Position numbers and translations under genes: made by a program. The notes beneath the pieces are model-generated. The model did no database searches. It had not been told where the DNA came from and worked only from the letters and a program-made list of their open reading frames with translations. DNA of 64,000 bases from Pseudomonadota bacterium (GTDB taxonomy: Bacteria; Pseudomonadota; Alphaproteobacteria; Caulobacterales; Hyphomonadaceae): the NCBI GenBank assembly GCA_039194965.1, contig JBCCVQ010000015.1, positions 22,675 through 86,674 on the forward strand, read 5' to 3'. Each line of letters begins with the position of its first letter. Position 1 is the first letter of the stretch. Positions 1-64,000 of the stretch are shown piece after piece.

Positions 1-232
1 CTAGCGTCCCGCCGACCTGAAAGGTCAATATACTCGTGTTCGATGCTTCGATCACAGCTGGAAGGTTCAACTGAAACACATTTGAACTCGACTCGACCTC
101 AACCAGCTTCACCGGTCGTATTGGATCTGGCGTTTCAATTGCTTCAGGCGACCCGCACGATGCAAGCAACACTGATAACGCGGCTACAATTGATACTGCA
201 CATGTTCTCGTGCGGTTAGACGAACCAATCAT
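1..232 (-). CDS. Efflux RND-type periplasmic adaptor (membrane-fusion) lipoprotein; N-terminal fragment that runs off the left edge
   Basis: Absent from the ORF track because it has no stop in the window. Hand translation from the ATG at 232 gives MIGSSNRTRTCAVSIVAALSVLLASCGSPEAIETPDPIRPVKLVEVESSSNVFQLNLPAVIEASNTSILTFQVGGTL... It has a lipobox-like LLASC. The following segment (P.V.V..V ... P.V.EAS....L.FQV.G.L) is typical of HlyD/AcrA-family adaptors. Confidence 0.5.
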   Translation of the reverse strand, partial: MIGSSNRTRTCAVSIVAALSVLLASCGSPEAIETPDPIRPVKLVEVESSSNVFQLNLPAVIEASNTSILTFQVGGTL

Positions 233-549
233 AAGACACCCTTTTGCCGTTCGATCTTTGCAATTTGCTATAAACGAGTTGTACGTGTTGCATAGGTATT
301 GCCGTCTTGATCTCCTAAACGACCAAATTCTTGTTCCAAAGCTTGCTGACAATCAGCGACAAGTCCACGCCGATGCAGGTGTGAACTGATCAATAGCTGC
401 GCAAACGGGAGCAAAGCATATCGGTGTCCTATTGTTCGATCTATTTTTTCCCAAGAATTGCTGACCCTGGGGGAATATATACCTGTCAGTGATCGCAGGC
501 TAACTTACCTCAAGACGTTTCCAATTGAGAAATCGCAGGTCGGAGGAAA

Positions 550-5198: not shown

Positions 5199-6473
5199 CT
5201 AGGACGCTTCGTTCGGTTGAACTTGCTTTGCATGCACGTAAAGCGGTTTAGCATTGCCATCGACCACTTCTGCATTGATCACAACTTCGTCGACACCACG
5301 CAGACCCGGCAGCTCGAACATTGTGTCGAGCAGGATAGATTCCATGATCGAACGCAAGCCGCGCGCACCGGTTTTCCGATCAATCGCTTTCTTCGCCACA
5401 GCGGTCATCGCATCTGGCGTGAAGGTCAAATTGACGTCCTCCATCTCAAACAGCTTTTGATACTGTTTGACGAGCGCGTTTTTAGGCTCGGTCAGGATGG
5501 TTACGAGTGCGTCTTCATCCAAATCTTCCAAAGTCGCTAGGACCGGAAGACGGCCAATAAATTCTGGGATCAGACCATAACGTTGCAAATCTTCAGGCTC
5601 GACCGTACGCAGGACTTCACCGACGCGGCGCGCCTCTGGGTCTTGTACATCGGCGCCAAAGCCGATCGACGTCGCTTCGCCGCGTGAGGAGATAATCTTG
5701 TCGAGGCCGGCAAAAGCGCCCCCACAAATGAACAGGATGTTGGTCGTGTCGACTTGCAGGAATTCTTGCTGTGGATGTTTGCGGCCACCTTGCGGAGGAA
5801 CCGCAGCAACCGTACCTTCCATGAGCTTGAGCAGCGCCTGCTGAACACCTTCACCCGATACATCGCGGGTAATGGATGGATTGTCTGACTTGCGAGAGAT
5901 CTTATCGATTTCGTCGATATAGACGATGCCGCGTTGCGCGCGCTCGACATTATAATCGGAGGCTTGCAGGAGCTTCAGAACGATATTCTCGACGTCCTCA
6001 CCAACATAACCGGCTTCGGTCAGCGTCGTCGCATCTGCCATTGTGAACGGCACATCCAAAACGCGTGCTAAAGTCTGCGCGAGAAGGGTCTTACCGCAAC
6101 CGGTGGGACCGATGAGCATGATGTTCGATTTGGCCAGTTCAACCCCATCTGCACCGCCCGGATTGGCGAGACGCTTATAGTGGTTGTGAACTGCCACAGA
6201 GAGGATGCGCTTGGCATAGCTTTGACCGATCACATAATCGTCAAGCACTTCGCAAATCTCTTGCGGGGTTGGAACGCCCTCTTTCGCTTTAAAGCCCGAA
6301 GCTTTGTTTTCTTCGCGAATGATGTCCATGCAGAGCTCAACGCATTCATCACAAATGAAGACCGTTGGACCCGCAATGAGCTTTTTCACTTCGTGCTGGC
6401 TCTTTCCGCAGAAAGAGCAATAGAGCGTATTCTTCGAATCGCCGCCAGAACCGTTTTGCTTTGCCATGGGCAA
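5199..6473 (-). CDS. clpX: ATP-dependent Clp protease ATP-binding subunit ClpX
   Basis: 424 aa. It has the zinc-binding N-domain [26 protein letters not shown] and Walker A GPTGCGKT. It lies directly downstream of clpP. Confidence 0.97.
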
Positions 6474-6601
6474 CCTCTATGACACGCATGGATTAACATG
6501 CGCTTTACTGGGACCGAATCCCACACTCTACTCGTAACTCTATAACCCTGACGGGCAGGCGCAAGCCTTAGCTCTCATTCCTAATGCAGGATGAGTGCCT
6601 A

Positions 6602-7225
6602 TTAATCTTCACTTGGATCCGCGCGGCGTTCATAGACCGTATCAACAATTCCAAAGTCTTTCGCATCATCAGCTGTCATGAACGTGTCACGATCGAGTTT
6701 TTTCTCAATCGTTTCATAGTCTTGCCCAGTATGCTTCACGTAGATTTCGTTCAAGCGGCGCTTCAAATCCAAGATTTCTTCGGCGTGCCGTTCAATATCA
6801 GTGGCCACACCGCGATATCCGCCGGAGGGCTGGTGAACCATAACGCGTGAGTTTGGTAGGGCGATCCGGCTGCCTTTATCGCCTGCAGCGAGCAATAAAG
6901 ATCCCATGCTCGCAGCTTGTCCGATGCACAATGTTGAGATCGGGCATCGAATATATTGCATCGTATCATAGATCGCCAAACCGGCCGTGACGTAACCGCC
7001 TGGGCTGTTGATATAAATGCCGACATCTTTTTTCGGGTTTTCTGATTCTAAAAACAGAAGCTGTGCGCAGACCAAAGAGGCGGTCGTGTCATCGATTGGC
7101 CCAGTGATGAAGATCAGGCGCTCTTTCAGCAGGCGCGAAAAGATATCGAACGCGCGCTCGCCGCGGCTGGTTTGCTCAATAACAGTGGGGACCAGATTCA
7201 CATCAGTCGGGCGTGGATCGAACAT
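6602..7225 (-). CDS. clpP: ATP-dependent Clp protease proteolytic subunit ClpP
   Basis: The track ORF extends to 7288. I chose the internal start [33 protein letters not shown] because it matches canonical ClpP N-termini. The catalytic Ser is in [11 protein letters not shown] and the His is in MVHQPSGG. Confidence 0.93.
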
Positions 7226-7687: not shown

Positions 7688-9024
7688 GCATCCTCTAATC
7701 GCGTGAATTGATCGGCTGCGTGCGGAAATTTGACCGCCAAACGTCCGAACTCATCACGGGTGACGCTGATATGAAGTTCAGCATTGCCAGCGTCGTCAAA
7801 TGTCTCGGTCTCGACCTGTGTATTGGCATGCAGCCACGCTCGCAATGCGCCATCTTTATGCGTGAGACGCGCGCAAATTCGCGCGCGGTCCCGATCGAGA
7901 ATGCGCTCCACCTCCATCAGAAGCTCATCAATGCCCTCTCCAGAAATGGCGGAGACAGACACAGCGATCAATTCCTCTGACAAGCGCGTCCGCTCGGCCT
8001 CGAGGCCTGCTCTGACCTCAGCAGAGACCAAATCAATCTTGTTCCAGACCTCAATCATTGGCGGAAGCGCGACGCCTGTGAGGTCGGATAATTGAGACAG
8101 AACCTTCAGCACGTCCTGCTTCTGGTCATCATCTGCATCGCTGGATCGGTCACGAACGTGAATAAGGAGGTCGGCTTCCAAAGCCTCTTCCAAGGTGGCG
8201 CGGAAACTATCAACCAAATGCGTGGGCAGATCGGAGATGAATCCGACCGTATCGATCAAACTCGCCTCGCCGAGATTCGGGAGGTCCAGTTTGCGGATCG
8301 TCGTATCCAGTGTGGCGAAGGGCATGTCTTTGGCCATGACATCCGCACCCGTCAGATGGTTGAACAGAGTCGACTTCCCAGCATTGGTGTAACCAACCAA
8401 GGCCAAAATCGGAGTTTCGCGGCGGCGGCGACCCGCCCGCTGCACACGGCGCGTCCGCTGGACATCTGCCAAATCGCGGCGCAAGCGCCTGACGGCGCGG
8501 TCGATCATCCGTTTGTCGGCTTCCAATTGTGTTTCGCCCGGACCACCTAAGAAACCGCGACCACCGCGTTGTCGTTCCAAGTGCGTCCAAGTGCGGACCA
8601 GGCGCGAACGCTCATACAGCAAGCGCGCCAATTCAACTTGTAACCGCCCTTCTTTCGTCCGCGCGCGCAAGCCAAAGATCTCAAGGATTAAACCGGTGCG
8701 GTCGATGACCTTGACACCCAGTCGATTTTCCAAGTTCCGCTGCTGGATGGGGCTCAGCGCAGCATCGATGATGACGATTGAACAGTCATGCCCGTGCACG
8801 TCTGCTGCGAGGCGATCGAGCAGACCACCAGAAAGCAAATAGCCCGGCGTCGGCTTTCGCACATTTTCGGGCCGAATGAATTCGAGCTCACACCCGAGCG
8901 CTTCCACAAGACCGGCTGATTCCTCAAGGCGCACCTCGCTCGGCCGCTCTGAAGTCAGAGTCCAGGGGATGATAAGTCCAGCCTTTTCAGGCCTTTGTTC
9001 CAACTCAATGGGTGTTTGCGTCAA
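7684..9024 (-). CDS. hflX: GTPase HflX
   Basis: 446 aa. It has G1 GYTNAGKSTLFN, G3 DTVGF and G4 NKID. It lies immediately downstream of hfq, which is the conserved arrangement. Confidence 0.92.
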   Translation of the reverse strand: MTQTPIELEQRPEKAGLIIPWTLTSERPSEVRLEESAGLVEALGCELEFIRPENVRKPTPGYLLSGGLLDRLAADVHGHDCSIVIIDAALSPIQQRNLENRLGVKVIDRTGLILEIFGLRARTKEGRLQVELARLLYERSRLVRTWTHLERQRGGRGFLGGPGETQLEADKRMIDRAVRRLRRDLADVQRTRRVQRAGRRRRETPILALVGYTNAGKSTLFNHLTGADVMAKDMPFATLDTTIRKLDLPNLGEASLIDTVGFISDLPTHLVDSFRATLEEALEADLLIHVRDRSSDADDDQKQDVLKVLSQLSDLTGVALPPMIEVWNKIDLVSAEVRAGLEAERTRLSEELIAVSVSAISGEGIDELLMEVERILDRDRARICARLTHKDGALRAWLHANTQVETETFDDAGNAELHISVTRDEFGRLAVKFPHAADQFTRLEDA

Positions 9025-9029
9025 GTGAC

Positions 9030-9272
9030 CTAGCTATCGTCTTCATCGAAGAGTTGCACGTGTGCGCCTGGCGCAATGGTCGAGATTGCGTGCTTGTAAA
9101 CCAGTTGCGGGGGGCGTCCATCGCCACGCAACAACACACAAAAGTTATCGAACCAGGTGACAACGCCTTGTAATTTCACACCATTCACAAGGAATATGGT
9201 CAATGGTGTCTTGGATTTACGGACCGCGTTTAAGAAAGTGTCCTGGAGGTTCTGCTTTTTATCTGAAGACAT
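9030..9272 (-). CDS. hfq: RNA chaperone Hfq
   Basis: 80 aa. The Sm1/Sm2 motifs are [39 protein letters not shown]...YKHAISTI. Confidence 0.97.
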
Positions 9273-9342
9273 GTTTTGCCTGTCCTTCTTTTATATTGCA
9301 GCGGCTATAACGATTGCGCAAAAATGGCAAGCGATCGGGCGG

Positions 9343-10752
9343 TTATCTTTGCCAAAATGAAGGATTCAGAGCCGGAAGAAGCGCAATCACCTCTAAACGC
9401 CCAAGAATCATCCCCAAAATCACACAAAATTGGGCAACACCGGTCAGCTCCGCATTCATTCCGGCAATGATGTGACCCGCATTCGACAGACTGCCAATGC
9501 CAGCGCGTATGGCATCGTCAAACGCCAATCCGGTCGCGCTGAGCAGCAAAGTCCCGAGCGTTGAGGCAACAATATAGCCAACCAAGTAAACCCAAACGCC
9601 CATAACCGTGCGATCCGATTGGCGCCGACGGCGGAAAGTGAAGTGTTTAATACTGCCGCGATACCCCAATTGTACGAATTCCAGCGCAACGCGGCGACTG
9701 AGAACGATCAAACGCGCCAATTTGAACCCGCCTGCCGCGGACAATGCGGACCCGCCGATAACGACCGGAAATAGAACCAATACAATCGGCAAACGTGAAA
9801 ACTGTTGGGGGTCGGTGAGCGCGATCCCGCTCGTCGCGAGCGACGATGTCGCCCACCCAACACTTTCGATCAACGGCAGGCCTGCAAAAAACGCCAGCGT
9901 CGTGACCAAGAAAAGTGAACCGATCCACGCCAGTGTCTCTGGATCCACGAGGACGGCGCGCGCGCGCCCCTGGCCCGCCCCATCGACTGCGATCAGTCCC
10001 AATGTCCCCAAAACCAGACCGACCCACAAGACAAATGAATGAATGGTTCCGGCTTGCGGCGCCATATTGTAAGCCATTGGGTCTACCATGCCCGTGGTCA
10101 CGGCGCTTACGGCACCGGCGAGCGCATCCCGCGGTGCCAATCCGAGCGCGAGTAGAAAGGCCGCCAAAACGACTGTACAACTTATGACCAGTGCACCGCT
10201 CACACGAATGGCCCGAATGATCGGATCGAAAAAGCTCGTCTCGGGTTCGCTGAAGAAGCGATTGCGATGCACACCCGGACCCCCAAGGTTCATGCCCGAA
10301 AAGACGCTCGCGGCGATTGTTATGCTGGCAACCGCTCCCATCAAGTGCAGCATAGCGCGCCAGACAAAGATGCTGGTGGGCATAGGGTTTTGGATCGGAT
10401 CGACGCGACTATGACCGGTTGTCGTCAGGTTCGATACGCTTTCATAATAGGCCGAAAGAAAGTCGGAATTGCCAAGATAATCGACGAACGGAATGGCCGC
10501 GATCGCGCCGCCAACGGACCAAAACAGAAGCGCCACCGCCAACCCATCTCGCGCTTGCGCTCTTTTCTGCGGTTTATCCGTGAGAAGGATCACTGTCGAT
10601 CCGATTGCACCAAGGCTGATCGCGGTTCCGGCAAAAACCAGCAACTGTTGAGTCTCGCCTGTCGCAACAGCCACCAAGAAGCAGACGCCCATCGAAATCG
10701 CGAATGCGAGTGTGACGAAACAAAAAACTCGAACGACAGCGAGATGGTTCAA
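9343..10752 (-). CDS. trkH: Trk-type potassium uptake membrane subunit TrkH
   Basis: 469-aa polytopic membrane protein with four P-loop-like segments (NLTTTGHS, AVTTGMV, SLATSGIA, SLSNAGHI). It lies directly downstream of trkA. Confidence 0.8.
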   Translation of the reverse strand: MNHLAVVRVFCFVTLAFAISMGVCFLVAVATGETQQLLVFAGTAISLGAIGSTVILLTDKPQKRAQARDGLAVALLFWSVGGAIAAIPFVDYLGNSDFLSAYYESVSNLTTTGHSRVDPIQNPMPTSIFVWRAMLHLMGAVASITIAASVFSGMNLGGPGVHRNRFFSEPETSFFDPIIRAIRVSGALVISCTVVLAAFLLALGLAPRDALAGAVSAVTTGMVDPMAYNMAPQAGTIHSFVLWVGLVLGTLGLIAVDGAGQGRARAVLVDPETLAWIGSLFLVTTLAFFAGLPLIESVGWATSSLATSGIALTDPQQFSRLPIVLVLFPVVIGGSALSAAGGFKLARLIVLSRRVALEFVQLGYRGSIKHFTFRRRRQSDRTVMGVWVYLVGYIVASTLGTLLLSATGLAFDDAIRAGIGSLSNAGHIIAGMNAELTGVAQFCVILGMILGRLEVIALLPALNPSFWQR

Positions 10753-23180: not shown

Positions 23181-24439
23181 GGGAAGATGCGCATTTTCAC
23201 CAGCGCGCGATTGTCCGTAAACGGCTGCACGTCGGACTGGTGATCAATCACTTCATAGCTGCCTTCAAGCCAGACACTTTGATTGATTTTCCAGTTCGCG
23301 CCGACATTCAAATTCACCCGATCATCATCGCGCTCAATTGTTTCAAACGCGTATTGGCCAAACCCTGCCTCACCTGTCAGTGACAGCCGCGACGTCAGTC
23401 CCTGTTCTAGGCGAACGCTGGCCTCCGTCGCGATGGCGGCATTTGAAAGCGCGATACCTGGATCAATGACCGACCGCTCAGCCTCCGCGCCGAGTGTTGT
23501 GCGCGGCGTGATTTGCCAATCAACGTGACCGGCGAAAGCGACGTCGCTGATATCCTCAAATATCACGTCGTCATATGTGTAATACTGGTATCCCACACCG
23601 ATATCGCCCGACAAAGATTGACCGACTTGAAACTCCGATCCGACGAGCAGCACGGTGCCGGTATGGTCGCGGTTGGTTGCGTTGAAGATATTTGGCTCAG
23701 CATAATCGGCTTGTACGACTGTGCCTTTGGCATAAACGACATTTGAATCATTAAGCGCATACCCCAAGCGACCTGACGCTGACAGTTCGTCGCGATCGCG
23801 AAAGTCCTGATCTTGGAACAGGTCGCCCGCCAATTCGGTGTCGTCATAATCGTAGGTGGCGAGTCCGACATCACCCTGCAATTGCAGCGCGCCAGCTTGA
23901 TGTTCGAATCCTAACGCCCCACGGGCGCTGGTATATTCATTTGGTTCAATCGACCCCGCAACATTGGAAAGAGCTAAGCGATCCTCTGTTTGGTCGGCGC
24001 CTTTAATCTTAACCGTAAAACTCGTATTCTCTCCAAGGTCGAGACGTCCGCGAAGCTTCACTTTAAGGTCAGTCCGGCTCTCACTGTCGAGATCGGCATA
24101 CTCACGATGATCGATCACGACTGCGCCGCCGAGACCATGACGTTGCCAATTTGAGTCGACCCTTAAAGATGGCTTAAAGCCAACAAATGAGTCTTCGACT
24201 TCATTCAGGTCAGATGCGAGCGCGTTGGACTGAGATCCGGCCGTGAATACGAGTTCGGGGCGCAATTCGAAACTGCCTTCCACAATAGGCGTCGGATCTA
24301 CGTCTGGATTGGCGCGCTCGCTAATTGGGATAACGCGATCTTGCGTCGACTCGTCGGCGTTTTGCGCGACGCTGATAGCCGGCAAAAGCAAACATGTGAG
24401 TGCGGCTCCACTGACCGCAGAGCTGAATTTGATAGTCAT
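23177..24439 (-). CDS. Outer-membrane beta-barrel protein (BBP2-like)
   Basis: Internal start [26 protein letters not shown] gives a signal peptide. Alternating amphipathic beta-strands run throughout ([17 protein letters not shown]). The C-terminus is ...VKMRIFP. The family assignment is from memory. Confidence 0.6.
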
Positions 24440-24577
24440 GAAACAAACGTCCGCGTACTCGTTATAATTGTCGGGATTATCGCGCGAGAGTGTTCCAAAG
24501 ACCTTAAGCACTCAAATGAAAACTTGGTCACACAGCTAACCGTAACCAAATTCAAATACTTCTGTATTATTAATGGG

Positions 24578-25027
24578 TTATACGAAACGCCGATCAGCTT
24601 CGGCACGAAAGGCGTCCATTATTTTTTGGACAGCTAAGCGGGTATTGGTCCTGGCAATAAACCCGAGAACCGGGTTTTTGAACTCATAATCGATAAAACA
24701 ATGCACGCGGGTCTTACCCTCTTCTCGCGGATCGAATCGCCAACGGTTGCGCAAGTGGCGAAACGGGCCGCGCGCCAGATTTACATCGATGTTGCGTGAT
24801 GCTGGATCGGCGAGCACGTGGGTCGAGAATTTTTCATCAAATCCGCTGAAATGCACAGAAGCTGTTCCGATACACTTATAATCAGAGGTAGCGTCTCCGT
24901 GCTCTTCCGATACAGAAACCTTCTTGATCCAGCGAATAAATTCCGGATAGCGCCGAATATCGCGGACCAATTCGTATAGATTGTCAGCTGTGTGCGGGAT
25001 GAGAACTTGCTCGGAAACTCTAGGCAT
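24578..25027 (-). CDS. SRPBCC (RatA / COQ10-like) START-domain protein
   Basis: Internal start [33 protein letters not shown]... The ATG at 25027 overlaps the lipA stop by 8 nt. Its length is about 149 aa, typical of this family. Confidence 0.72.
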
Positions 25028-39244: not shown

Positions 39245-40846
39245 ATGCCGGATTCTGAAGCCATCTCCTCGGTCGAAACCGAGTATGATACCGAATATGA
39301 GGTCGGTCAGGACAATGTCGAGGTCCTGGGATTGGACGTCCATAATCCGGTTTTCTTTTTGGCCGCCAGCCTCGTACTTCTCTTTGGCGGACTCACCCTC
39401 GTCTTTCCAACCGCCTCTGGCGAGATGTTGAGTGCTGCCAGATCTCACACATTGCAATCCTTCGATTGGTTGTTCGCCGCGACGCCCGTGCTGGTGTTCG
39501 TTTTCTGTCTAAGCCTGGCGATATCACCGCTCGGCCGTATTCGTTTGGGCGGCCGTGACGCGACACCTGATTACAAAATACACTCTTGGATTGCGATGCT
39601 GTTCGCAGCTGGCGTGGGCATTGGGTTTATGTTCTGGGGGGCGGCTGAGCCACTGGCTTACCACACAGATTGGTTCGGTATGCCGCTCGGCGCTGAACCC
39701 GGATCGCCAGAAGCGAACCGCTTGGCGTTTAGCGCCACCTTGTTCCATTGGGGCCTAGCGCCTTGGGCGATTTACGCTATCGTCGGACTGTCGCTGGGTT
39801 TTTTCGCGCACAATAAGGGGCTCCCGCTTTCGGTTCGCTCGGCTTTTTATCCCCTGTTAGGGGAACGGGTCTGGGGCTGGTGGGGTCATGTGATCGACCT
39901 GTTTGCCGTCGTATCCACGATCTTCGGGCTAGCGACCACAATTGGCCTCGGCGGCACACAAGCCGCCAGCGGCCTCGGCTACATGTTCGATTTTGAGCCC
40001 AATGTGTGGACGCAAATCGGCTTGATCGGAGCGATGACGGGATTGGCGGTGCTCTCGGTAATCCGTGGAATGGATGGTGGCGTAAAGCTTTTAAGCAATA
40101 TCAACATGGTGGTTGCTTTTTGCCTTTTGCTATTCGTGATCATCGCGGGTCCAACGGCATTGATTTTCACCGGCATGGGAGAAAATCTTGTTGCTTACAT
40201 CGTCGACACACCCGCGCTGACCAACTGGGTCGGTCGTGAAGACATAGCGTGGTTCCATGATTGGACGATATTCTACTGGGCCTGGTGGATATCGTGGTCA
40301 CCTTTTGTGGGCATGTTCATTGCGCGCATTTCGAGAGGAAGAACCGTGCGCGAATACTTCTCGGTCGTGTTGCTCGCACCATTTACAATCTGCGTCGTCT
40401 GGTTCTCCGCCTTTGGAGAAACGGCGGTCTTCCAGTATGAGAACGGCATCGGCGATCTGTCGGGCGGCGTTGTGAATTCAGCGACGGTTTTGTTCCAGAT
40501 GTTGGCGGCGTTACCTTTGAGCGGCGTCACGTCAGTCATTGCAATTGGTTTGCTGATTGTCTTCATCGTAACCTCTGCAGACTCGGGCGCTTTGGTTGTC
40601 GATACGATCACGTCTGGCGGCAAGACCAATGCACCAATCGCGCAACGTGTTTTTTGGGCGTGCATGCTCGGCTTAACCGCATCAGCGCTGCTGTATGGTG
40701 GCGGAACGTCTGCGCTCGAAGCTCTGCAAGCCGGCACAATCGCGGCAGCGCTGCCATTCACGATCGTCCTGCTCATTTGTTGCCTCAGCCTCTATCTCGG
40801 CATGCGGGATGATATGCGCGCGGCAGCGGAGCATCCGGACGGATGA
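39245..40846 (+). CDS. BCCT-family betaine/carnitine/choline transporter
   Basis: 533 aa. It has the glycine-rich TM3 motif AMLFAAGVGIGFMFWGAAEP and the BCCT tryptophan box HDWTIFYWAWWISWSPFVGMFIARISRGRT. Confidence 0.9.
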   Translation: MPDSEAISSVETEYDTEYEVGQDNVEVLGLDVHNPVFFLAASLVLLFGGLTLVFPTASGEMLSAARSHTLQSFDWLFAATPVLVFVFCLSLAISPLGRIRLGGRDATPDYKIHSWIAMLFAAGVGIGFMFWGAAEPLAYHTDWFGMPLGAEPGSPEANRLAFSATLFHWGLAPWAIYAIVGLSLGFFAHNKGLPLSVRSAFYPLLGERVWGWWGHVIDLFAVVSTIFGLATTIGLGGTQAASGLGYMFDFEPNVWTQIGLIGAMTGLAVLSVIRGMDGGVKLLSNINMVVAFCLLLFVIIAGPTALIFTGMGENLVAYIVDTPALTNWVGREDIAWFHDWTIFYWAWWISWSPFVGMFIARISRGRTVREYFSVVLLAPFTICVVWFSAFGETAVFQYENGIGDLSGGVVNSATVLFQMLAALPLSGVTSVIAIGLLIVFIVTSADSGALVVDTITSGGKTNAPIAQRVFWACMLGLTASALLYGGGTSALEALQAGTIAAALPFTIVLLICCLSLYLGMRDDMRAAAEHPDG

Positions 40847-41994
40847 ATACGATTCTAACAATCGCCATTCTATTCACACTCTGCACGTCGCTTATTCTTG
40901 TCACTAGGTTTCGCAATCTGAAACTCAATGGCGGTGACCCATTGCCGCTCACTGCGTTCATGGCCATCCTGTTTACGTCCGGTCTCGATGTCGGATTGAT
41001 CATGTTCCCCCTCACTGAATTCCCTGTTTATGAGACCGAGGCCGCTTATCAGTTCACCAATGCCCTCGCGATTGAGTTCGGCTTCTGGGGCTTTTTGGTT
41101 TGGGGATTCTACTTTCTAACGACCTTCTATTTTTGCGTGGTAGAACCGAAGTTGAAAATATTCGAAATAGGTTGGGTGAAACTGATCAACAATGCCGTCA
41201 TCATAGCCACATGCGCGTTCACCGGTTTTTTGTTTCTGTCCTATTTGCCGAACTATATCGAAGGTATCAGCGATCCGTTCCGATATGGACTGGTCGCCAT
41301 TGTGGTTTTAGCGGCGGTGATTTCAAGCACCGACATTCGATACGTTAAGTGGCTAGGACTCGGATCTAGCGGTTTGTTCTTTGGCCTGATCGCCTTGCTT
41401 TGGCTCACCAGCGGCGCCGGCGTTTCGGGGCTTGCACAGAGCGCATCAAATATCGGCGGCTATTTCACAAATCTCCCAAAATTTACGCACCCGCAGACGG
41501 ATTATCACGCCTTTTATCTGTTCTGGTGGTTTGCTTGGAGCATCATGATCGGGCAGTTCGTGGCACGGTTCGTAGGTGGCTTGCGGACGTATCAATTGAT
41601 GCTGGCGCTGCTTATTCTACCTTCCATCCCAATCGCGCTGTGGTTTTCGATCCTCTATATCTATCACGCACAATCCATCGAACTGGTACAATGGCTGCAG
41701 ATTAGCATGGTCGTTGTCGGCGTCATCTTCGTCATCAATTCACTCGACTCGTTGACCCGGCTCTATTCTGAAAATCTCGGGCTCACAGTCACGCGCCTGA
41801 GCGGTCCGGTTTATGTGGCGACGCACTGGGCCCTGCTGTTCAGCTTGATCCTGCTCTACCAATTCACACCGCTCAAGATCGAATGGATTGGGCTGGTCGT
41901 GATCGGCATCTATTGCGCAATCTATGTCCTGACCTTTATCAGACGCGATGCGCTTAGAGGGATAGAGGAAGCAGAGGCAGCTCGCCATGGATAA
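40843..41994 (+). CDS. Compact (383 aa) divergent BCCT-like membrane protein
   Basis: Its ATG overlaps the BCCT stop (ATGA at 40843-40846) and its stop overlaps the next ATG by 8 nt. It has degenerate BCCT motifs in the right order: [19 protein letters not shown], then [27 protein letters not shown], then VINSLDS. It is visibly more AT-rich than its neighbours. Confidence 0.6.
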
Positions 41995-58495: not shown

Positions 58496-60595
58496 CTATT
58501 CTGCTGCCATCACGGTTGCAACACCTTGTTTTTGAAGCGAACACTCCGCCATCGTCTTCGACGCCCGGGCGATCGGATTGGTCAGGTAAAAGTCCTCGAT
58601 CGCTGCCGAGAATGGCGTGCTGCTAAGGCTGCTGCCGCCGGCATCAATCGGCGCCTTCAACGCTTCGACCCCTGCGTCCCCAGGCGCATAGCCAAACCCT
58701 GAGAAGACGTCATTCTGCTCGCGCAATGCCGCCCGCAATTCATCGGCTGAGTCGTAGGGCAAGGTTTTACCCACCACATCCGACAGCGCCCGGAAGATCG
58801 CCCACGCCTCTCGCGCTTCGCCTTTTGGCTGTACGGCGCGGCGGGTCATCTGAACCCGGCCTTCGGTGTTCACATAAGTCGCGACCATTTCGGTATAGGC
58901 GGCGGCGGGCAGGATAATGTCCGCTTTGCTCGCCCCGGCATCGCCATGGCTGCCGACATAGATGATCGTCGCATTACCGGTCTTAGACAGGTCGACTTCA
59001 TCGGCGCCCAAAAGCACCACGGTTTCCATCTCTCCGCCAAGGATACGCGCCGTATTACCCCCGTTTTCGCCGGGGATAAATCCGACATCCAACGCGCCGA
59101 CCCGGCCTGCCGCAGAGTGCAGAATTCCGAACCCGGCCCAGTCGTCCTTGATGGCTTGGATGTCCAGCGCATAGTCATGCGCCTTGGCGAGAATGGCCGC
59201 TCCGTCTTCGCGCGCGAGCACGCTTTCGCCGACGACAATCATCGGTTTTTCGGCATTCCGAAGTGCCTCGCAAATGCTGCTATCTCTCGCTGAAATGCCG
59301 CTCAAACTCGCTGAACTGTCACCGAGATGCTCGTAATCATAGGTCAGGTCGGCGGCTTCGCCGATGACGCCCACTTTCAGATCATTCCACAGCCAAGCTT
59401 TGCGAATTCGCGCATTCCACACCGCCGCCTCAACTCGCGGGTTTACCCCGATGAGGAGCAAAGCGTCCGCCTCTTCCACACCGGCGAGGGTTGGATTGAG
59501 CAGATAATGCTCACGCACTCCGTCTGTGCCATAGGTGGCGCCAGCGGGTCGACAATCGGTGTTCTGCACGCCGAGTGCTCGGGCGAGATCAAACGCCGCT
59601 TTAGCTTGTTCGACTTCGATCAGATCCCCGGCGATGAAACCTATCTTCTCCGGCGCGCCAGAGAGCGCTGCTTTTACGGCATCGAAAGCTTCGCCCCAAT
59701 TGACCGGGGTGAGTTTGCCATCCTTGCGGACATAAGGCTTGTCCAGACGTTGGCGCGCCAGACCGTCCCAAATGAAACGCGACTTGTCGGACAGCCATTC
59801 TTCATTCACCGCTTCATTGATCACCGGCATGATACGCATCACCGCATCGCCTTTGGCATCGACGCGGATGTTCGAGCCGAGCCCATCCATGATGTCGACG
59901 CTCTCCGTCTTGCGCAATTCCCAGGGGCGGGCGTTGAATGCATAAGGCTTAGAGGTCAGCGCGCCGACCGGGCAGAGGTCGATGACATTGCCGGAGAGTT
60001 CAGAGCTCAGGCTCTCTTCGAGATAGGTGGTGATCTCGGCATTTTCGCCGCGCGAAATCATGCCAATCTCTTCGACGCCTGCGACTTCGGCGGCAAAGCG
60101 GACACAGCGTGTGCATTGGATGCAGCGGGTCATGATGGTCTTGACCAGGGGGCCCATATTCTTGTCTTCAACCGCGCGCTTGTTCAGCTCATAACGGCTA
60201 TCGGCGCGGCCATAGGCCACCGCCTGGTCTTGCAAGTCACACTCCCCGCCTTGGTCGCAAATCGGGCAATCCAACGGATGGTTGATGAGCAGGAATTCCA
60301 TCACGCCATTGCGGGCTTTTTCGACATAGTCGCCTTTGGTCGAGATGTTTGGCGGCGTGCCATCCGGGTTCATTCGCATATCGCCCACCGTCTGCGCACA
60401 AGACGCAATCGGCTTCGGCGCGCCATGCCATTGGACCAGACACATCCGGCAATTACCAGCGACGGACAGCCGCTCATGATAACAAAAGCGCGGGATCTCA
60501 GCGCCCGCGGCCTCGCAGGCCTGCATCAACGTGTACGAGCGCGGGACTTCAACGTCCTCGCCGTCAATGTTCAGTTTGAAAAGATCGTCGGACAT
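58496..60595 (-). CDS. nuoG: NADH-quinone oxidoreductase subunit G
   Basis: 699 aa. It has the N-terminal 2Fe-2S motif CYHERLSVAGNCRMC, the 4Fe-4S motifs HPLDCPICDQGGEC and CIQCTRCVRF, and a molybdopterin-oxidoreductase-like domain. Confidence 0.96.
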   Translation of the reverse strand: MSDDLFKLNIDGEDVEVPRSYTLMQACEAAGAEIPRFCYHERLSVAGNCRMCLVQWHGAPKPIASCAQTVGDMRMNPDGTPPNISTKGDYVEKARNGVMEFLLINHPLDCPICDQGGECDLQDQAVAYGRADSRYELNKRAVEDKNMGPLVKTIMTRCIQCTRCVRFAAEVAGVEEIGMISRGENAEITTYLEESLSSELSGNVIDLCPVGALTSKPYAFNARPWELRKTESVDIMDGLGSNIRVDAKGDAVMRIMPVINEAVNEEWLSDKSRFIWDGLARQRLDKPYVRKDGKLTPVNWGEAFDAVKAALSGAPEKIGFIAGDLIEVEQAKAAFDLARALGVQNTDCRPAGATYGTDGVREHYLLNPTLAGVEEADALLLIGVNPRVEAAVWNARIRKAWLWNDLKVGVIGEAADLTYDYEHLGDSSASLSGISARDSSICEALRNAEKPMIVVGESVLAREDGAAILAKAHDYALDIQAIKDDWAGFGILHSAAGRVGALDVGFIPGENGGNTARILGGEMETVVLLGADEVDLSKTGNATIIYVGSHGDAGASKADIILPAAAYTEMVATYVNTEGRVQMTRRAVQPKGEAREAWAIFRALSDVVGKTLPYDSADELRAALREQNDVFSGFGYAPGDAGVEALKAPIDAGGSSLSSTPFSAAIEDFYLTNPIARASKTMAECSLQKQGVATVMAAE

Positions 60596-61104
60596 TAGCG
60601 CTCGCTCCTGTTCGAAATTCTGTTCACCAATTCTTCGGCGTGTTCAGAAAATGCACTGCAATTCTGCAACTGGGTCCAAAGCAATCCGTTACGCAGAGTT
60701 AGAACAATCCAAATCGGATCTTCGGGGGTTCCAAACATGCCGGGCACAAAGTCACCGTTACAAGTGTTCATTCCCTGCTCGAACTCGCAATGCGAGTTGT
60801 ACGAGACTGAACTAACACCGTTAAGATGCGCGATTACCACATCGCCCGATGCGGCACCTTTATAAGACTCCACAATCTTAAAACTTCCGATTGGGCGAAA
60901 TGGATCTCGTGGTCGATCGTACTTCGTACAGACTTTCATTGGCGTAAGTTGTGCATCCAACATGTATCCTTTGAAAACTAGATCGGCTTCCGAGAACTCT
61001 CGTTCAGCGACAGCTTCTCTATCATTGATGACGCACGAGCACGCTGATGCGACTGGTGCACCGAGCACAGCCACAAACAGAAGACTAAAGGCGAATCGTA
61101 GCAT
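60595..61104 (-). CDS. Secreted Cys-rich hypothetical protein (mature N-terminus CSC; TIMP/NTR-like pattern) inserted between nuoF and nuoG
   Basis: 169 aa with the signal peptide MLRFAFSLLFVAVLGAPVASA followed by CSCV. It starts 3 nt after the nuoF stop, and its stop shares one base with the nuoG ATG (TAATG). It is markedly AT-richer than its flanks. Confidence 0.65.
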   Translation of the reverse strand: MLRFAFSLLFVAVLGAPVASACSCVINDREAVAEREFSEADLVFKGYMLDAQLTPMKVCTKYDRPRDPFRPIGSFKIVESYKGAASGDVVIAHLNGVSSVSYNSHCEFEQGMNTCNGDFVPGMFGTPEDPIWIVLTLRNGLLWTQLQNCSAFSEHAEELVNRISNRSER

Positions 61105-61107
61105 CCC

Positions 61108-62415
61108 CTACTCCGCCGCCACCGTATGACCCTGCACCAACGCCCGTGGCGCGCGGTACTGGATGATGCGTTCTTCGATTTCATGCCGGAAGTGGCGGAT
61201 GAGGCCTTGGACGGGCCAGGCGGCCGCGTCGCCAAGGGCGCAAATGGTGTGGCCTTCGACTTGTTTGGAGACGTCGAGCAGCTTGTCGATATCGGCATGA
61301 TGCGCTTCGCCGGTGACCATTTGCTCGAGCACGCGCCACATCCAGCCGGTGCCTTCTCGGCACGGCGTACACTGGCCGCAGCTTTCATGCTTGTAGAAGT
61401 AAGAAATCCGAGCAATCGCGTGGATCAGGTCGGTCGACTTGTCCATGACGATGACCGCTGCCGTACCGAGGCCCGATTGCAAGTCGCGCAAAGTGTCGAA
61501 ATCCATATGCGCGTCCATGATTTGTTCGGCCGGCACCATGGGCACCGATGAGCCGCCGGGGATCACGGCTTTGAGATTGTCCCAGCCGCCGCGAATGCCG
61601 CCGCAATGCGTATCGATTAAGTCCTTGAACGTAATCGACATTTCTTCTTCAATATTGCAGGGCGCGTTGACGTGGCCGGAAATGCAGAACAGCTTCGTAC
61701 CGGTATTATTCGGGCGTCCGAACCCGGCAAACCACCCGGCCCCGCGGCGCAGAATGGTTGGCGCGACCGCGATTGATTCAACATTGTTCACCGTCGTCGG
61801 GCAGCCATAAAGACCGGCATTGGCCGGGAATGGCGGCTTCAAACGTGGCTGACCTTTCTTGCCTTCCAGGCTTTCTAGGAGCGCGGTTTCTTCGCCGCAA
61901 ATATAAGCGCCTGCGCCGTGATGGACGTAGAGATCGAAGTCCCAGCCATTGACATTGTCTTTGCCGATCAGTTTGGCTTCATAGGCCTCTTTGACCGCTT
62001 TCTCGAGTGCCTCACGCTCCGCGATATATTCGCCGCGCAGATAGACGTAACAGGCATGCGCGCGCATCGCCCGGCTCGCGACCATGCAGCCTTCGATCAG
62101 CAGATGCGGATCATGGCGCATAATCTCGCGGTCTTTACAGGTGCCGGGTTCGGACTCATCGGCGTTGACGACCAAATAGTGCGGTCGATCACCAACGCTC
62201 TTGGGCATGAAGGTCCATTTTAGCCCGGTTGGGAATCCCGCGCCGCCGCGACCGCGCAGGCCGCTCTCTTTGATCTGGTTGCAAATCCAGTCGGGGCCTT
62301 GCGCCAGCATTTCGCGGGTTAGGTGCCAGGCCCCGCGCTTCTTAGCGCCTTCTAACCCAGGATCATGGGCGCCATAGAGATTGGTAAAGATACGATCTTT
62401 ATCTTGAAGCATCAT
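61108..62415 (-). CDS. nuoF: NADH-quinone oxidoreductase subunit F
   Basis: 435 aa with [11 protein letters not shown], the FMN/NADH site [10 protein letters not shown] and the N3 cluster motif [12 protein letters not shown]. Confidence 0.97.
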
Positions 62416-62611
62416 TTTGCTCCTTCATCTCGCGAATGGCGGAAATCATCAGCGGTGCGGCGACGCCCGTGGCGATAAAGATCGCGCCGAGGATCCAGAC
62501 CATGTTTCCAGATGTCACAAATAGAGCCACGCCAAGCGCGATGATGACAAAATCAATCACAGCGGCGAGCATCAGCTTTCGGCGGGGATCCGGTTTTTCG
62601 ACCAGTGCCAT
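62399..62611 (-). CDS. Two-TM micro-protein (unidentified reading frame) between nuoE and nuoF
   Basis: 70 aa with two hydrophobic helices ([20 protein letters not shown] and [19 protein letters not shown]). Its start is TAATG-coupled to the nuoE stop, and its 3-prime end overlaps the nuoF start by 17 nt. Confidence 0.55.
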
Positions 62612-63651
62612 TATTCATCCCCCTCATCTTTGGAGGACTCGACTTCGCCCGCATCGACGCGCTTTGAGAACGCAGTCTCTTCGCCGTCTGCGAGGGTTTT
62701 CGCTTGGGCGATCCAGTCTTCGCGCTCAATCCGTCCCGGGAAGGACATGAAGTCTTCGACCCAATCGACATTGGCTGGGGTCCAGGACGCGATTTGGCTG
62801 AACTTATAGATGCCAAGTTCGTTCAGGGCTTTTTCATTGACGGGGCCGATGCCTTTAATGCGCTTGAGATCGTCTTCTTCACCATCCGCCAGTTCGACCA
62901 CGTCCGGCTTGTCTTCGGGCTTCGGCGCGGGCTTGGAGTCTTTGATCAGTGTGGTTTTGGCCTCTTTGGCCGGGACTGGCTCTGGCTCAGCCGGCGCTTC
63001 GCTCGGCAGATTTGGCAGCGATGTGATCGCATTGCGAGATCCATCATAGAGATCATCAGCGAGCAGACTGGTCGCCCCACCCTGCGGTGCGGAATTTAAG
63101 CGATCCACATATGGGCCCGGCTTCACTTCGGCGCCGTGTTCGAGCTTGGTGAGAATTTCATCGAAACTCTCAACTGTCAGGTCTTCATAATAATAGTCGT
63201 TGATTTGCACCATTGGCGCATTCACGCAGGCGCCTAAACATTCGACCTCTTCCCAGCTCAGGCGGCCATCATCGGTGACATGCATAGGGTCGCCAATTTT
63301 CTTGCGGCAAACCTCTTTCAGGTCATTTGCGCCACGCAGCATGCAAGGGGTCGTGCCGCAAAGCTGGACGTGGTTTTTGCCGACCGGCTGAAGCCGGAAC
63401 ATGGTGTAGAAAGTCGCGACTTCATACACACGGATATAGGGCATTTCGAGCCGATCTGCGACTTCGCGCATGGCCGGTTCCGAGAGCCAGCCCTGATTGT
63501 CCTTTTGCGCCAGCCAGAGGAGCGGGATCACCGCAGAGCGTTTCTTCTCCTCAGGATATTTCCCAAGCCAGAACGCGATCGTCGGTTCAGTTTCGGGTTT
63601 GAACGCGAAACTGTCGCCGCCGGCTTCCAGATCAAAACGTCTCAGCGCCAT
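62611..63651 (-). CDS. nuoE: NADH-quinone oxidoreductase subunit E with a ~140-aa C-terminal extension
   Basis: 346 aa. The 2Fe-2S ligands are in LCGTTPCMLRG and ECLGACVNAP. A Pro/Glu/Lys-rich linker follows, then IKGIGPVNEKALNELGIYKFSQIASW, which looks like a helix-hairpin-helix module. Confidence 0.94.
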   Translation of the reverse strand: MALRRFDLEAGGDSFAFKPETEPTIAFWLGKYPEEKKRSAVIPLLWLAQKDNQGWLSEPAMREVADRLEMPYIRVYEVATFYTMFRLQPVGKNHVQLCGTTPCMLRGANDLKEVCRKKIGDPMHVTDDGRLSWEEVECLGACVNAPMVQINDYYYEDLTVESFDEILTKLEHGAEVKPGPYVDRLNSAPQGGATSLLADDLYDGSRNAITSLPNLPSEAPAEPEPVPAKEAKTTLIKDSKPAPKPEDKPDVVELADGEEDDLKRIKGIGPVNEKALNELGIYKFSQIASWTPANVDWVEDFMSFPGRIEREDWIAQAKTLADGEETAFSKRVDAGEVESSKDEGDE

Positions 63652-64000
63652 TACGCTGTCTCCTCGAGGAAGGGGTCTATGTCATTTTTGAGCAACCGAA
63701 ACTCGCCCTTGCCGCGCGCCTGGCACCAGGCATTCGCATCGTCGAACAGGGCTTGGATAGCATCTGCATTGAGATCGGTCGTGGCGAACTTTTCAGAAGC
63801 GCGCTCGCCTGTGATCGCGACGCGCAGGCCGTTATCTTCGGGATCACGTTCAATCTCGTGATAGAAATGTGTCGCCCAGCCTTTGACGCCAATCACGGGG
63901 GCATCGGTGTCAGGGTCGGCGTTAAACGGGAGGTCTTTGTCTGCGTAAAAGTCGACATTGCAGACATCGCAAATGGCTTCGAATTTGTCTGAGTTTGGGT
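63651..64000 (-). CDS. Acidic hypothetical protein upstream of nuoE; partial, open to the right edge
   Basis: The track lists 63651..63896 from a GTG. My hand translation shows the frame stays open to position 64000 (...PNSDKFEAICDVCNVDFYADKDLPFNADPDTDAPVIGVKGW...). Its TAA shares a base with the nuoE ATG (TAATG). It does not resemble the NuoD C-terminus. Confidence 0.5.
   Translation of the reverse strand, partial: PNSDKFEAICDVCNVDFYADKDLPFNADPDTDAPVIGVKGWATHFYHEIERDPEDNGLRVAITGERASEKFATTDLNADAIQALFDDANAWCQARGKGEFRLLKNDIDPFLEETA

Follow-up and report, generated by a model that had tools for sequence, protein, structure and literature searches.

A probable TIMP/NTR-superfamily passenger protein encoded between nuoF and nuoG in the complex I operon of a Hyphomonadaceae bacterium

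What is a gene for an apparently exported, cysteine-rich protein doing inside the operon that encodes respiratory complex I (NADH dehydrogenase)? The question is raised by a stretch of 64,000 nucleotides from a Pseudomonadota bacterium of the Hyphomonadaceae (GenBank assembly GCA_039194965.1, contig JBCCVQ010000015.1, positions 22,675 to 86,674), which we call the window, and in which an open reading frame (ORF) of 169 codons lies between nuoF and nuoG, in a junction that we call the slot. We think that this ORF is best explained (probability about 0.6) as an exported passenger cassette related to the tissue inhibitors of metalloproteinases (TIMP), with docking in the TIMP manner as its likeliest action. 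The two components of this reading carry different weight. That the product is an exported passenger protein of the TIMP/NTR (netrin) superfamily, not a part of complex I, is very probable; actual inhibition of a metalloprotease, a pure extrapolation from the sequence, is plausible but doubtful.

The ORF is a genuine gene. The nuoF stop codon (TAG, 61108-61110) is followed by GGG and then by the ATG of the ORF at 61104, which leaves a gap of 3 nt, and at the other end the stop codon of the ORF overlaps the nuoG start (Table 1). The original prediction, made from the letters of the window, had given the coordinates of the ORF, its protein sequence and length of 169 aa, the 3-nt gap and the TAATG overlap, and each of these matches the sequence exactly. 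It had also proposed that the gene is real and that its translation is coupled to that of its nuo neighbours, a view that stands, given the TAATG geometry and the preservation of frame and position in homologues. Indeed, ten loci have an intact frame of 169-201 codons, whose start and stop have stayed in place with respect to nuoF and nuoG; the stop of the cassette overlaps or abuts the nuoG start (TAATG or ATGA) in nine of these and is separated from it by three bases in the tenth (L088). Fourteen residues (A19, A21, C22, C24, A40, F44, G46, C59, G83, C106, C115, W132, G140 and C149) are invariant in the 10-sequence alignment, and pairwise identity within the family alignment is 23-44% despite conservation of all six Cys and of the junction A-x-A/C-x-C (the slash marks the predicted cleavage site). 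Synonymous sites are saturated for most pairs, so that dN/dS (the ratio of nonsynonymous to synonymous divergence) is not computable there; for the closest pair of alleles (L002 and L082, 60% identity), dN is 0.29 with dS saturated, which argues for purifying selection. If the ORF were instead a spurious or decaying frame, without function, in a fast-evolving spacer, its low content of G+C (GC) overall and at third codon positions (GC3), the extreme rarity of the family, the lack of a curated family match and the very high divergence would all be accommodated. We give almost no credence to this explanation, which runs against the ten intact frames, the 14 invariant residues with all six Cys among them, the purifying selection in the L002/L082 pair, and the confident, compact fold that the alignment yields.

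Few relatives of the protein are known. An exhaustive HMMER search over 1.84 billion cluster representatives found eight (E = 5e-37 to 7e-6), and a word-indexed profile search with one alignment (A1) found only three proteins, adding P0009. The eight HMMER relatives, P0009-P0011 and the window allele make 12 distinct sequences, all unnamed or ‘hypothetical’. A look-up of clusters across ∼15 billion proteins gave 11 distinct family sequences; the window allele itself is unrecorded. No homologue was returned by a single-protein word-indexed search of 5.8 billion clusters, and no match by a metagenome locus scan with the four closest members. A scan with the NuoF C-terminus yielded 80 loci and no new family member, and the only matches of the mature protein in plasmid records, searched by tblastn, were chance ones to umuD. 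Neither the window protein nor any of the 10 members has a Pfam match at E ≤ 10, PF00965 (TIMP) and PF01759 (NTR/C345C) included. A phage or defence origin is unsupported, as searches of PHROGs, PADLOC and NCBIfam were all negative.

The sequence argues that the product leaves the cytoplasm. As the original prediction had claimed, the signal peptide is directly followed by Cys-x-Cys, and the sequence A-x-A/C-x-C is found in 10 of 10 members, a conservation from which we infer the cleavage site. The predicted mature chain of 148 aa has its six Cys at mature positions 1, 3, 38, 85, 94 and 128, exactly as had been stated, and all homologues keep both the six Cys and the CxC N-terminus, the loss of which had been named in advance as grounds for abandoning the idea. 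Nine members have six Cys in all and one (P0008) has seven, the extra Cys lying within its A-C-A cleavage motif. The second mature residue is Ser in eight of the ten members, Thr in one and Val in one. Positions −3 and −1 relative to the predicted cleavage site are always Ala and position −2 is S, L, N, Q, F or C; processing by signal peptidase I is favoured because Ala is invariant at −3 and −1 and position −2 is variable. The C-terminus is a polar amphipathic helix (EHAEELVNRISNRSER) without a membrane anchor. Thus, export would be by the Sec pathway, signal peptidase I would most likely cut after Ala-Ser-Ala, and the mature chain would begin with a free Cys in the Cys-Ser-Cys motif.

A Cys at the end of a signal peptide may also mark a lipoprotein, in which case signal peptidase II would cleave before Cys22, and a lipid-modified Cys22 would anchor the barrel to the inner or outer membrane and leave no free alpha-amino group. 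This point counts against our interpretation, since lipidation of Cys22 would block a mechanism of the TIMP type. The sequence V-A-S-A-C, with Cys at 22 and with Arg3, fits a permissive PROSITE-style lipoprotein rule, as do 8 of 10 members, and a TIMP-like protein of Listeria is a lipoprotein with the lipobox LTAC (PMC8235301). However, position −3 is never Leu, Val or Ile, the residues found at −2 are atypical of a lipobox, and the strict lipobox [LVI][ASTVI][GAS]C occurs in 0 of 10 members, against 10 of 10 for A-x-A. With Cys22 lipidated, furthermore, only an odd number of Cys, five, would remain, although all six are invariant in the family. Relatives in Bacillus and Nonomuraea have SYA/CDC and AHA/CSC at the corresponding site and are anchored by a C-terminal transmembrane helix instead. 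Lipidation therefore appears unlikely, and a free Cys22 is clearly favoured over it because A-x-A is conserved, a strict lipobox is absent and the number of Cys is even. A copper or other metal site at the CxC motif was also considered and judged unlikely, with six invariant Cys, an even number, in an oxidising compartment.

The exported chain is predicted to adopt an OB (oligonucleotide/oligosaccharide-binding) type of fold. AlphaFold2 run on a 10-sequence alignment (A3) gave a model with a mean predicted local distance difference test (pLDDT) score of 82.4 and a predicted template modelling (pTM) score of 0.72, while the single-sequence run (pLDDT 40.7) was uninformative. The model consists of the signal helix, a helix at residues 29-39, strands at 42-53, 71-82, 89-93, 100-102, 108-110, 131-138 and 141-144, and a helix at 152-168. 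In a Foldseek comparison with the PDB, the first match is TIMP-1 (3ma2_B, E = 8e-3, probability 0.99, TM-scores of 0.36/0.49), and it is followed by the PCOLCE-1 NTR module, TIMP-2, the meteorin-like and meteorin NTR modules, the C345C domains of complement C3, C4 and C5, and Sizzled; ∼15 of the top 50 matches are of the NTR type. The evidence for the fold is the consistency of these matches, not the strength of any one of them. The absence of any OB/NTR similarity had been named beforehand as a result that would overturn the idea; TIMP and NTR modules are in fact the best PDB matches of the model, if weak ones. A Foldseek comparison with viral structures gave nothing meaningful. Ecotin, the Ivy/MliC/PliC inhibitors, the serralysin inhibitor Inh and CusF-like OB folds were considered as alternatives, and none of them is among the top 50 structural matches.

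To relate the family to TIMP at the level of sequence profiles, we used hhalign in local mode, calibrated with column shuffles (global alignment was meaningless), with human N-terminal TIMP domain (N-TIMP-1, -2 and -3) sequences verified against PDB chains. Compared directly, the mature family aligns with N-TIMP-1/2/3 from N-terminus to N-terminus with a score of 21.4 (P = 0.007), which none of 150 column shuffles reached (shuffle mean 11.4, sd 2.3). In this alignment CxC is placed on CxC, F-x-x-AD-x-VF on F-C-N-SD-LVI, and KVV...KG on IKM...KG. The blocks that the original prediction had compared (CxC, ADLVF, ...YKG, ...NGLL...C-S-F) were thus recovered in the same register.

The profile homology to N-TIMP is transitive, through bacterial intermediates, and not one direct link. 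When plasmid-labelled records were searched by tblastn with N-TIMP-2 as the query, two bacterial ORFs came up, one from Bacillus sp. N5-665 and one from Nonomuraea gerenzanensis; both have a signal peptide, CDC or CSC, the blocks (T/A)D-x-VF-x-G-x-V, ...KG, SC and CSG, and a terminal transmembrane anchor. The Bacillus protein scores E = 4.9e-4 on the Pfam TIMP model and 5e-3 on the NTR model, just below the gathering scores, and the Bacillus and Nonomuraea proteins together align with the N-TIMPs over 106 columns (95.6% hhalign probability, E = 1.2e-8). Our family in turn aligns with the Bacillus and Nonomuraea proteins with 93% probability (E = 3.3e-7) if signal peptides are included and with 78.7% probability (E = 1.7e-5, 98 columns) for the mature family. 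The real score for this comparison, 35.4, was reached by none of 120 plain shuffles and none of 120 shuffles in which the CxC was held fixed (highest 23.8). We conclude that this bacterial family is probably related, though very distantly, to the N-terminal (NTR) domain of TIMP, and the earlier reading as a TIMP/NTR-like protein holds to the extent of this distant homology and of the best PDB matches; the Pfam TIMP and NTR models are silent and the direct scores are sub-significant.

In TIMP, the disulfides Cys1-Cys70 and Cys3-Cys99 form the inhibitory ridge. In the alignment through the bacterial intermediates, C22 corresponds to TIMP C1, C24 to C3, C115 (preceded by a near-invariant S114) to C70 and C149 to C99, and Cys22 and Cys24 may be paired with Cys115 and Cys149 as in that ridge. 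C59 and C106 have no counterpart in TIMP, and no Cys is aligned to TIMP C13 or C124; Cys59-Cys106 may be a third disulfide, specific to the family, that replaces C13-C124. The Cys-for-Cys match to TIMP that had been suggested thus extends to C1, C3, C70 and C99, and fails for Cys13-Cys124, of which there is no equivalent, and for the family-specific Cys59 and Cys106. The mature chain would fold into an OB-type barrel locked by these disulfides.

We compared the family with the systems that it most resembles. Vertebrate N-TIMP (PF00965, an NTR/OB fold) has the Cys-Ser/Thr-Cys start that is predicted for our family, the same order of blocks, a helix, five strands and a helix in the order that the model suggests for our family, and the counterparts of Cys1, Cys3, Cys70 and Cys99; TIMP-1 is also the best structural match of the family. 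Our family differs from vertebrate TIMP in that there is no direct significant sequence match, no Cys13-Cys124, and apparently a different third disulfide. It is single-domain, lacking the C-terminal TIMP domain with its three further disulfides, and it is found in a bacterial host with no known matrix metalloproteinase partner.

The closer likeness is to the bacterial N-TIMP-like CxC proteins of Bacillus (∼180 aa) and N. gerenzanensis, which have the same small-x-small end of the signal peptide before C-x-C and the same order of motifs, (A/T)D-x-VF-x-G, K-x-x-KG, S-C and C-S/G (hhalign probability with the family 79-93%). Both groups are functionally uncharacterised. The Bacillus and Nonomuraea type has four Cys and a C-terminal transmembrane anchor and is encoded by free-standing genes in Gram-positive hosts, whereas our family has six Cys, a terminal amphipathic helix, a ∼35-residue insertion between the third strand and the last hairpin, and a place in the Gram-negative periplasm; it is found only inside the nuo operon and lies below all Pfam thresholds. 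TIMP-type single-domain proteins have been noted in ‘various Eubacteria’ (PMC3516229, citing Brew & Nagase 2010). The Bacillus protein has 220 relatives among the Bacillus cereus group, several of them with precomputed PF00965 matches. Proteins of this type, of ∼180 aa (P0012-P0131; L170 2429-2968 in Bacillus sp. N5-665), consist of a signal peptide, CxC, an N-TIMP-like domain and a C-terminal transmembrane anchor. The Bacillus CxC proteins are named ‘cobalamin biosynthesis protein CbiN’ or ‘cobalt transporter CbiN’ by NCBI and UniRef, which is probably a propagated misannotation.

Another bacterial system of this kind is the Mtz-Tim pair of Listeria monocytogenes, whose Tim protein is likewise exported, its likeness to TIMP coming from structure prediction only (PMC8235301). 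Tim is encoded next to its metzincin gene, under a CI/Cro-like switch of phage origin, carries the LTAC lipobox and is cleaved by the protease, and its relatives in other Firmicutes have signal peptides of the signal peptidase I type (PMC8235301). In contrast, our family has no linked protease, regulator or phage context.

How, then, did a TIMP-like protein come to be encoded within the complex I operon? The nuoF–nuoG junction is a general insertion hotspot, or passenger (‘URF’, unidentified reading frame) site, of the alphaproteobacteria. Of the 155 alphaproteobacterial loci in which both genes are present, 98 show a nuoF–nuoG spacing of 150 bp or more. These inserts belong to at least nine unrelated families, for example a ∼230-aa protein with a helix-hairpin-helix (HhH) motif, a 162-aa family of unknown function, DUF3291, pentapeptide repeats, TM2-domain proteins and small membrane proteins (126 aa), and the hidden Markov model of our family matches none of the other slot inserts. 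Our family is found in the slot in 10 of 10 loci with known context, and no member was found elsewhere. A scan with NuoG places the window in Henriciella/Hyphomonadaceae, with 88-89% identity to the nearest species representatives, and in nine of the closest Henriciella-type genomes the slot is empty and measures 9 bp. These empty-slot relatives have NuoF 95-97% and NuoG 85-89% identical to those of the window. The same 3′ end of nuoF (GTGGCGGCGGAGTAR) precedes nuoG in the empty-slot relatives and precedes the cassette in all family members.

The alleles that occupy the slot do not follow its flanks. The window and L082 have flanks with 99% protein identity and 91% DNA identity (flank dS 0.37), but their ORFs are only 26% identical in protein and ∼51% in DNA (dN 0.94). 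The boundaries are sharp, as identity collapses right after the ATG of the ORF and resumes at the nuoG start. When all pairs are taken together, the identity of the ORFs shows no significant correlation with that of the flanks (Spearman 0.24, p = 0.12). A 26%-identical allele between ∼99%-identical flanks is the behaviour of a replaceable cassette, and this turnover of alleles may be due to replacement by recombination through conserved nuoF and nuoG arms; the alternative is a long-lived polymorphism. Against recombination, it must be said that the argument depends mainly on one clear pair, the window and L082, and that the other pairs have a flank dS near 1, which is compatible with very fast vertical divergence. 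No flanking direct repeats, insertion sequence element or tRNA were found at the slot, and both junctions, with the nuoF stop and with the nuoG start, are clean.

The composition of the gene bears on the same point. The GC content of the ORF is 0.484 (GC3 0.488), compared with 0.586 (0.692) for nuoF and 0.590 (0.681) for nuoG, and the ORF falls within the lowest 1% of 510-bp GC tiles of the window (mean 0.549, sd 0.026). In all ten loci the family genes have a lower GC (0.43-0.53) than their flanks (0.56-0.65). The earlier hand counts of G+C (26/60 in the ORF, 31/60 in nuoG and 42/60 in nuoF) were exact, and the composition, which had been called foreign on their account, is indeed low, but only modestly so. 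Seven other patches of the window are about as GC-poor, and the dip alone is for that reason not unique evidence of foreign origin. The low GC likely reflects a recombining passenger cassette in a slot that often holds unrelated genes. Patches with a GC comparable to that of the ORF (0.46-0.48) include window positions 1-250, 6200-6800, 8900-9700, 24100-25000 and 40760-41600.

The constancy of the location could also mean that the protein serves complex I, as a lineage-specific periplasmic accessory or assembly factor similar to the disulfide-rich subunits of the mitochondrial intermembrane space. Mitochondrial complex I does carry supernumerary subunits rich in Cys, on its periplasm-equivalent side, and all ten members are in the nuo operon, coupled to nuoG, with none found elsewhere. 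But the gene is absent from the closest relatives, the slot holds at least nine unrelated families elsewhere in the alphaproteobacteria, and NuoF and NuoG are cytoplasmic; it is also hard to fit a conserved docking surface to alleles that are ∼75% different where complex I subunits are ∼99% identical. Moreover, a nuo URF product that has been characterised works in a different complex (PMC13066640). We consider a role in complex I very improbable. The occupation of the slot by at least nine unrelated families argues for a passenger gene, and the earlier statement that the ORF is not a complex I subunit is upheld by the lack of a family match, the empty slot of the nearest relatives and the hypervariable alleles. 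The passenger protein is probably unrelated to respiration.

URFs in alphaproteobacterial nuo operons have long been known. Our ORF resembles them in being on the same strand, unrelated to Nuo proteins and variable between taxa, and in lacking a promoter or terminator of its own. One of them, urf1, is likewise a same-strand ORF between complex I genes (nuoE and nuoF), not homologous to Nuo subunits, taxon-variable and expressed from the operon; its product is the auxiliary protein-3h of the light-harvesting 1–reaction centre complex (LH1-RC) in Rhodovulum sulfidophilum and was shown experimentally to act outside complex I (PMC13066640). Our family occupies another slot and encodes an unrelated protein, and it differs from urf1 in that the product is exported and disulfide-rich, presence or absence is polymorphic within a genus and the alleles are deeply divergent.

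No promoter-like or terminator-like site was seen in 60300-61400. As a passenger cassette without such sites of its own, the gene would use a ribosome-binding site in the end of nuoF, for which the GGAG listed in Table 1 is a candidate by its position, and would hand ribosomes on to nuoG through the TAATG overlap, so that the protein would be made whenever complex I is made. In marine Hyphomonadaceae the slot would be either empty or filled by one of a set of very divergent alleles, which would replace one another by recombination at the conserved arms.

Once exported, to the periplasm or the outside of the cell, the protein may act as TIMP does, with its N-terminal Cys ridge docked at the active site of a zinc metalloprotease. 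This mode of docking is suggested because the chain starts at Cys1, has Ser or Thr at position 2, retains both ridge Cys pairs and forms an exported barrel. Several results weigh against the TIMP-like interpretation as a whole. The direct profile similarity to TIMP lies below conventional significance (hhalign probability 5%), no Foldseek match reaches E ≤ 1e-3 or a TM-score of 0.5, and the family goes unrecognised by any curated model in searches of Pfam, NCBIfam, PHROGs and PADLOC or in sequence and profile searches of the PDB. As for inhibition, no gene for a metzincin or other secreted metalloprotease was found in the window or adjoining the Bacillus homologue gene, and the PCOLCE-1 NTR module, even in a form that begins with its first Cys, is no inhibitor of metzincins (PMC2871463).

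The same fold and the same passenger status could thus belong to an NTR-type module that binds without inhibiting, with an envelope polymer, another periplasmic protein or a metal ion as its ligand and with CxC only as a structural disulfide anchor. Most NTR modules (those of PCOLCE, the netrins, the sFRPs, complement C345C and meteorin) bind and do not inhibit, and NTR modules provide most of the Foldseek matches. The PCOLCE-1 NTR module was without effect on MMP-2, BMP-1 and ADAMTS enzymes (PMC2871463), and Listeria Tim is a substrate or effector of its metzincin, not a classical inhibitor (PMC8235301); the lack of a linked protease gene fits as well. The PCOLCE-1 NTR, meteorin NTR and complement C345C modules (Foldseek ranks 2-9) have the fold class in common with our family, but they are internal or C-terminal parts of multidomain animal proteins, in which the first Cys is not the start of the chain and residue 2 is not Ser or Thr (PMC2871463). 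The spacing of the six Cys in NTR/C345C (PF01759) differs from that of our family, so that only the fold class matches. A purely structural CxC would not require that the chain start at that Cys; in our family Cys1 is at the predicted cleavage site, Ser or Thr follows it in 9 of 10 members and both ridge Cys pairs are retained, and these three determinants of TIMP inhibition are also conserved in the Bacillus and Nonomuraea relatives. We regard a module that only binds as rather unlikely, though the most serious competitor of TIMP-like docking.

TIMP-like docking can also be taken further than we are inclined to take it. The cassette could be a hypervariable inhibitor of the TIMP type, swapped through the nuoF and nuoG arms, for which the respiratory operon serves as a constitutive platform that needs no promoter and whose diversity is kept up by an arms race with foreign zinc metalloproteases of competitors, predators, hosts or phages. 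This extended proposal is improbable as it stands. If it were true, inhibition by an N-terminal Cys in the style of TIMP would be an ancient bacterial invention, not a metazoan one.

The features of the slot and its two arms are listed in Table 1.

Table 1. The cassette between nuoF and nuoG, its parts and its flanking genes, in positions of the window
Feature	Position	Strand	Remarks
TIMP-like passenger coding sequence, stop codon included	60595..61104	minus	169 aa, ATG start; from ORF list and sequence; frame and position kept in homologues
Signal peptide (predicted), residues 1-21, MLRFAFSLLFVAVLGAPVASA	61042..61104	minus	ends in A-x-A signal peptidase I motif; A19 and A21 invariant, −2 variable in 10/10
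Predicted mature chain, residues 22-169	60598..61041	minus	OB-type beta-barrel, N-terminal helix 29-39, C-terminal helix 152-168 (AlphaFold2, Foldseek, hhalign)
Cys-Ser-Cys at predicted mature N-terminus	61033..61041	minus	probable counterpart of TIMP Cys1-Thr/Ser2-Cys3; C22 and C24 invariant
Six invariant Cys codons	C22 61039-61041, C24 61033-61035, C59 60928-60930, C106 60787-60789, C115 60760-60762, C149 60658-60660	minus	
nuoF, conserved upstream arm of the slot	61108..62415	minus	Pfam Complex1_51K, SLBB_2 (SLBB), NADH_4Fe-4S
nuoG, conserved downstream arm of the slot	58496..60595	minus	Pfam Fer2_4, NADH-G_4Fe-4S_3, Fer4_Nqo3, Molybdopterin, NADH_dhqG_C
TAATG overlap of ORF stop and nuoG start	60593..60597	minus	ORF TAA 60597-60595 and nuoG ATG 60595-60593, one A in common
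GGAG, Shine-Dalgarno-like motif	61111..61114	minus	within the last nuoF codons, 6 nt upstream of the ORF ATG; read from sequence
AGGAG	60605-60609	minus	inside the 3′ end of the ORF, 9 nt upstream of the nuoG ATG

The operon holds other inserted genes. The gene order in the window is nuoE, a 70-aa membrane ORF, nuoF, the passenger ORF, nuoG, nuoH through nuoN, birA, coaX and the RNase J gene. The 70-aa ORF (62399-62611, minus strand), a predicted membrane protein with no Pfam match, is placed between nuoE and nuoF and overlaps the nuoE stop with its ATG and the nuoF start with its end; equivalents of 63-71 aa are present in L081 and L083-L085, and we regard it as another passenger ORF of the nuo operon. 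An 81-aa ORF (63651-63896, minus strand), also without a Pfam match, ends at the nuoE start codon, and more inserted genes lie upstream of nuoE, truncated by the end of the window. Related contigs (L081 and L083) have a 149-150-aa gene of the glyoxalase family and a 158-aa ORF between nuoD and nuoE. Within the nuoF–nuoG slot, two close relatives have different inserts: L090, whose NuoF is 96% identical to that of the window, has 780 bp, and L009 has 1127 bp without a long ORF on the same strand.

NuoE itself (62611-63651, minus strand, 346 aa) has a C-terminal extension of ∼170 aa (residues ∼180-346) with a weak helix-hairpin-helix match. A motif of this extension, DLKxIxGIGPxxExxLNxLGIxxFxQIAxWT, recurs in the ∼230-aa slot ORF of Mesorhizobium and its relatives. 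The HhH-type module is thus either fused to NuoE or free-standing in the nuo operon.

The practical significance of the family is limited by its rarity (12 known sequences), and its interest lies in what it adds to two subjects. First, the nuoF–nuoG junction is documented as a common docking site for passenger genes of unrelated families, at least one of which appears to be a recombining, hypervariable cassette within an essential, highly conserved operon. The finding is relevant to the ways in which operons acquire and trade genes, and for annotation it means that such ORFs are not to be called complex I subunits. Second, bacterial TIMP-like proteins have been mentioned in reviews essentially without an assigned function, and many are annotated as ‘CbiN’. 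The family described here appears to be a highly divergent new variant of these little-known proteins, set in unusual genomic surroundings, and as a small and soluble example of the bacterial N-TIMP-like type it lends itself to tests. The hallmarks of TIMP, the Cys-Ser/Thr-Cys start and the two ridge Cys pairs, would persist in a Gram-negative lineage far below the level of Pfam detection, which adds to the argument for a functional importance of the N-terminal-Cys wedge in bacteria.

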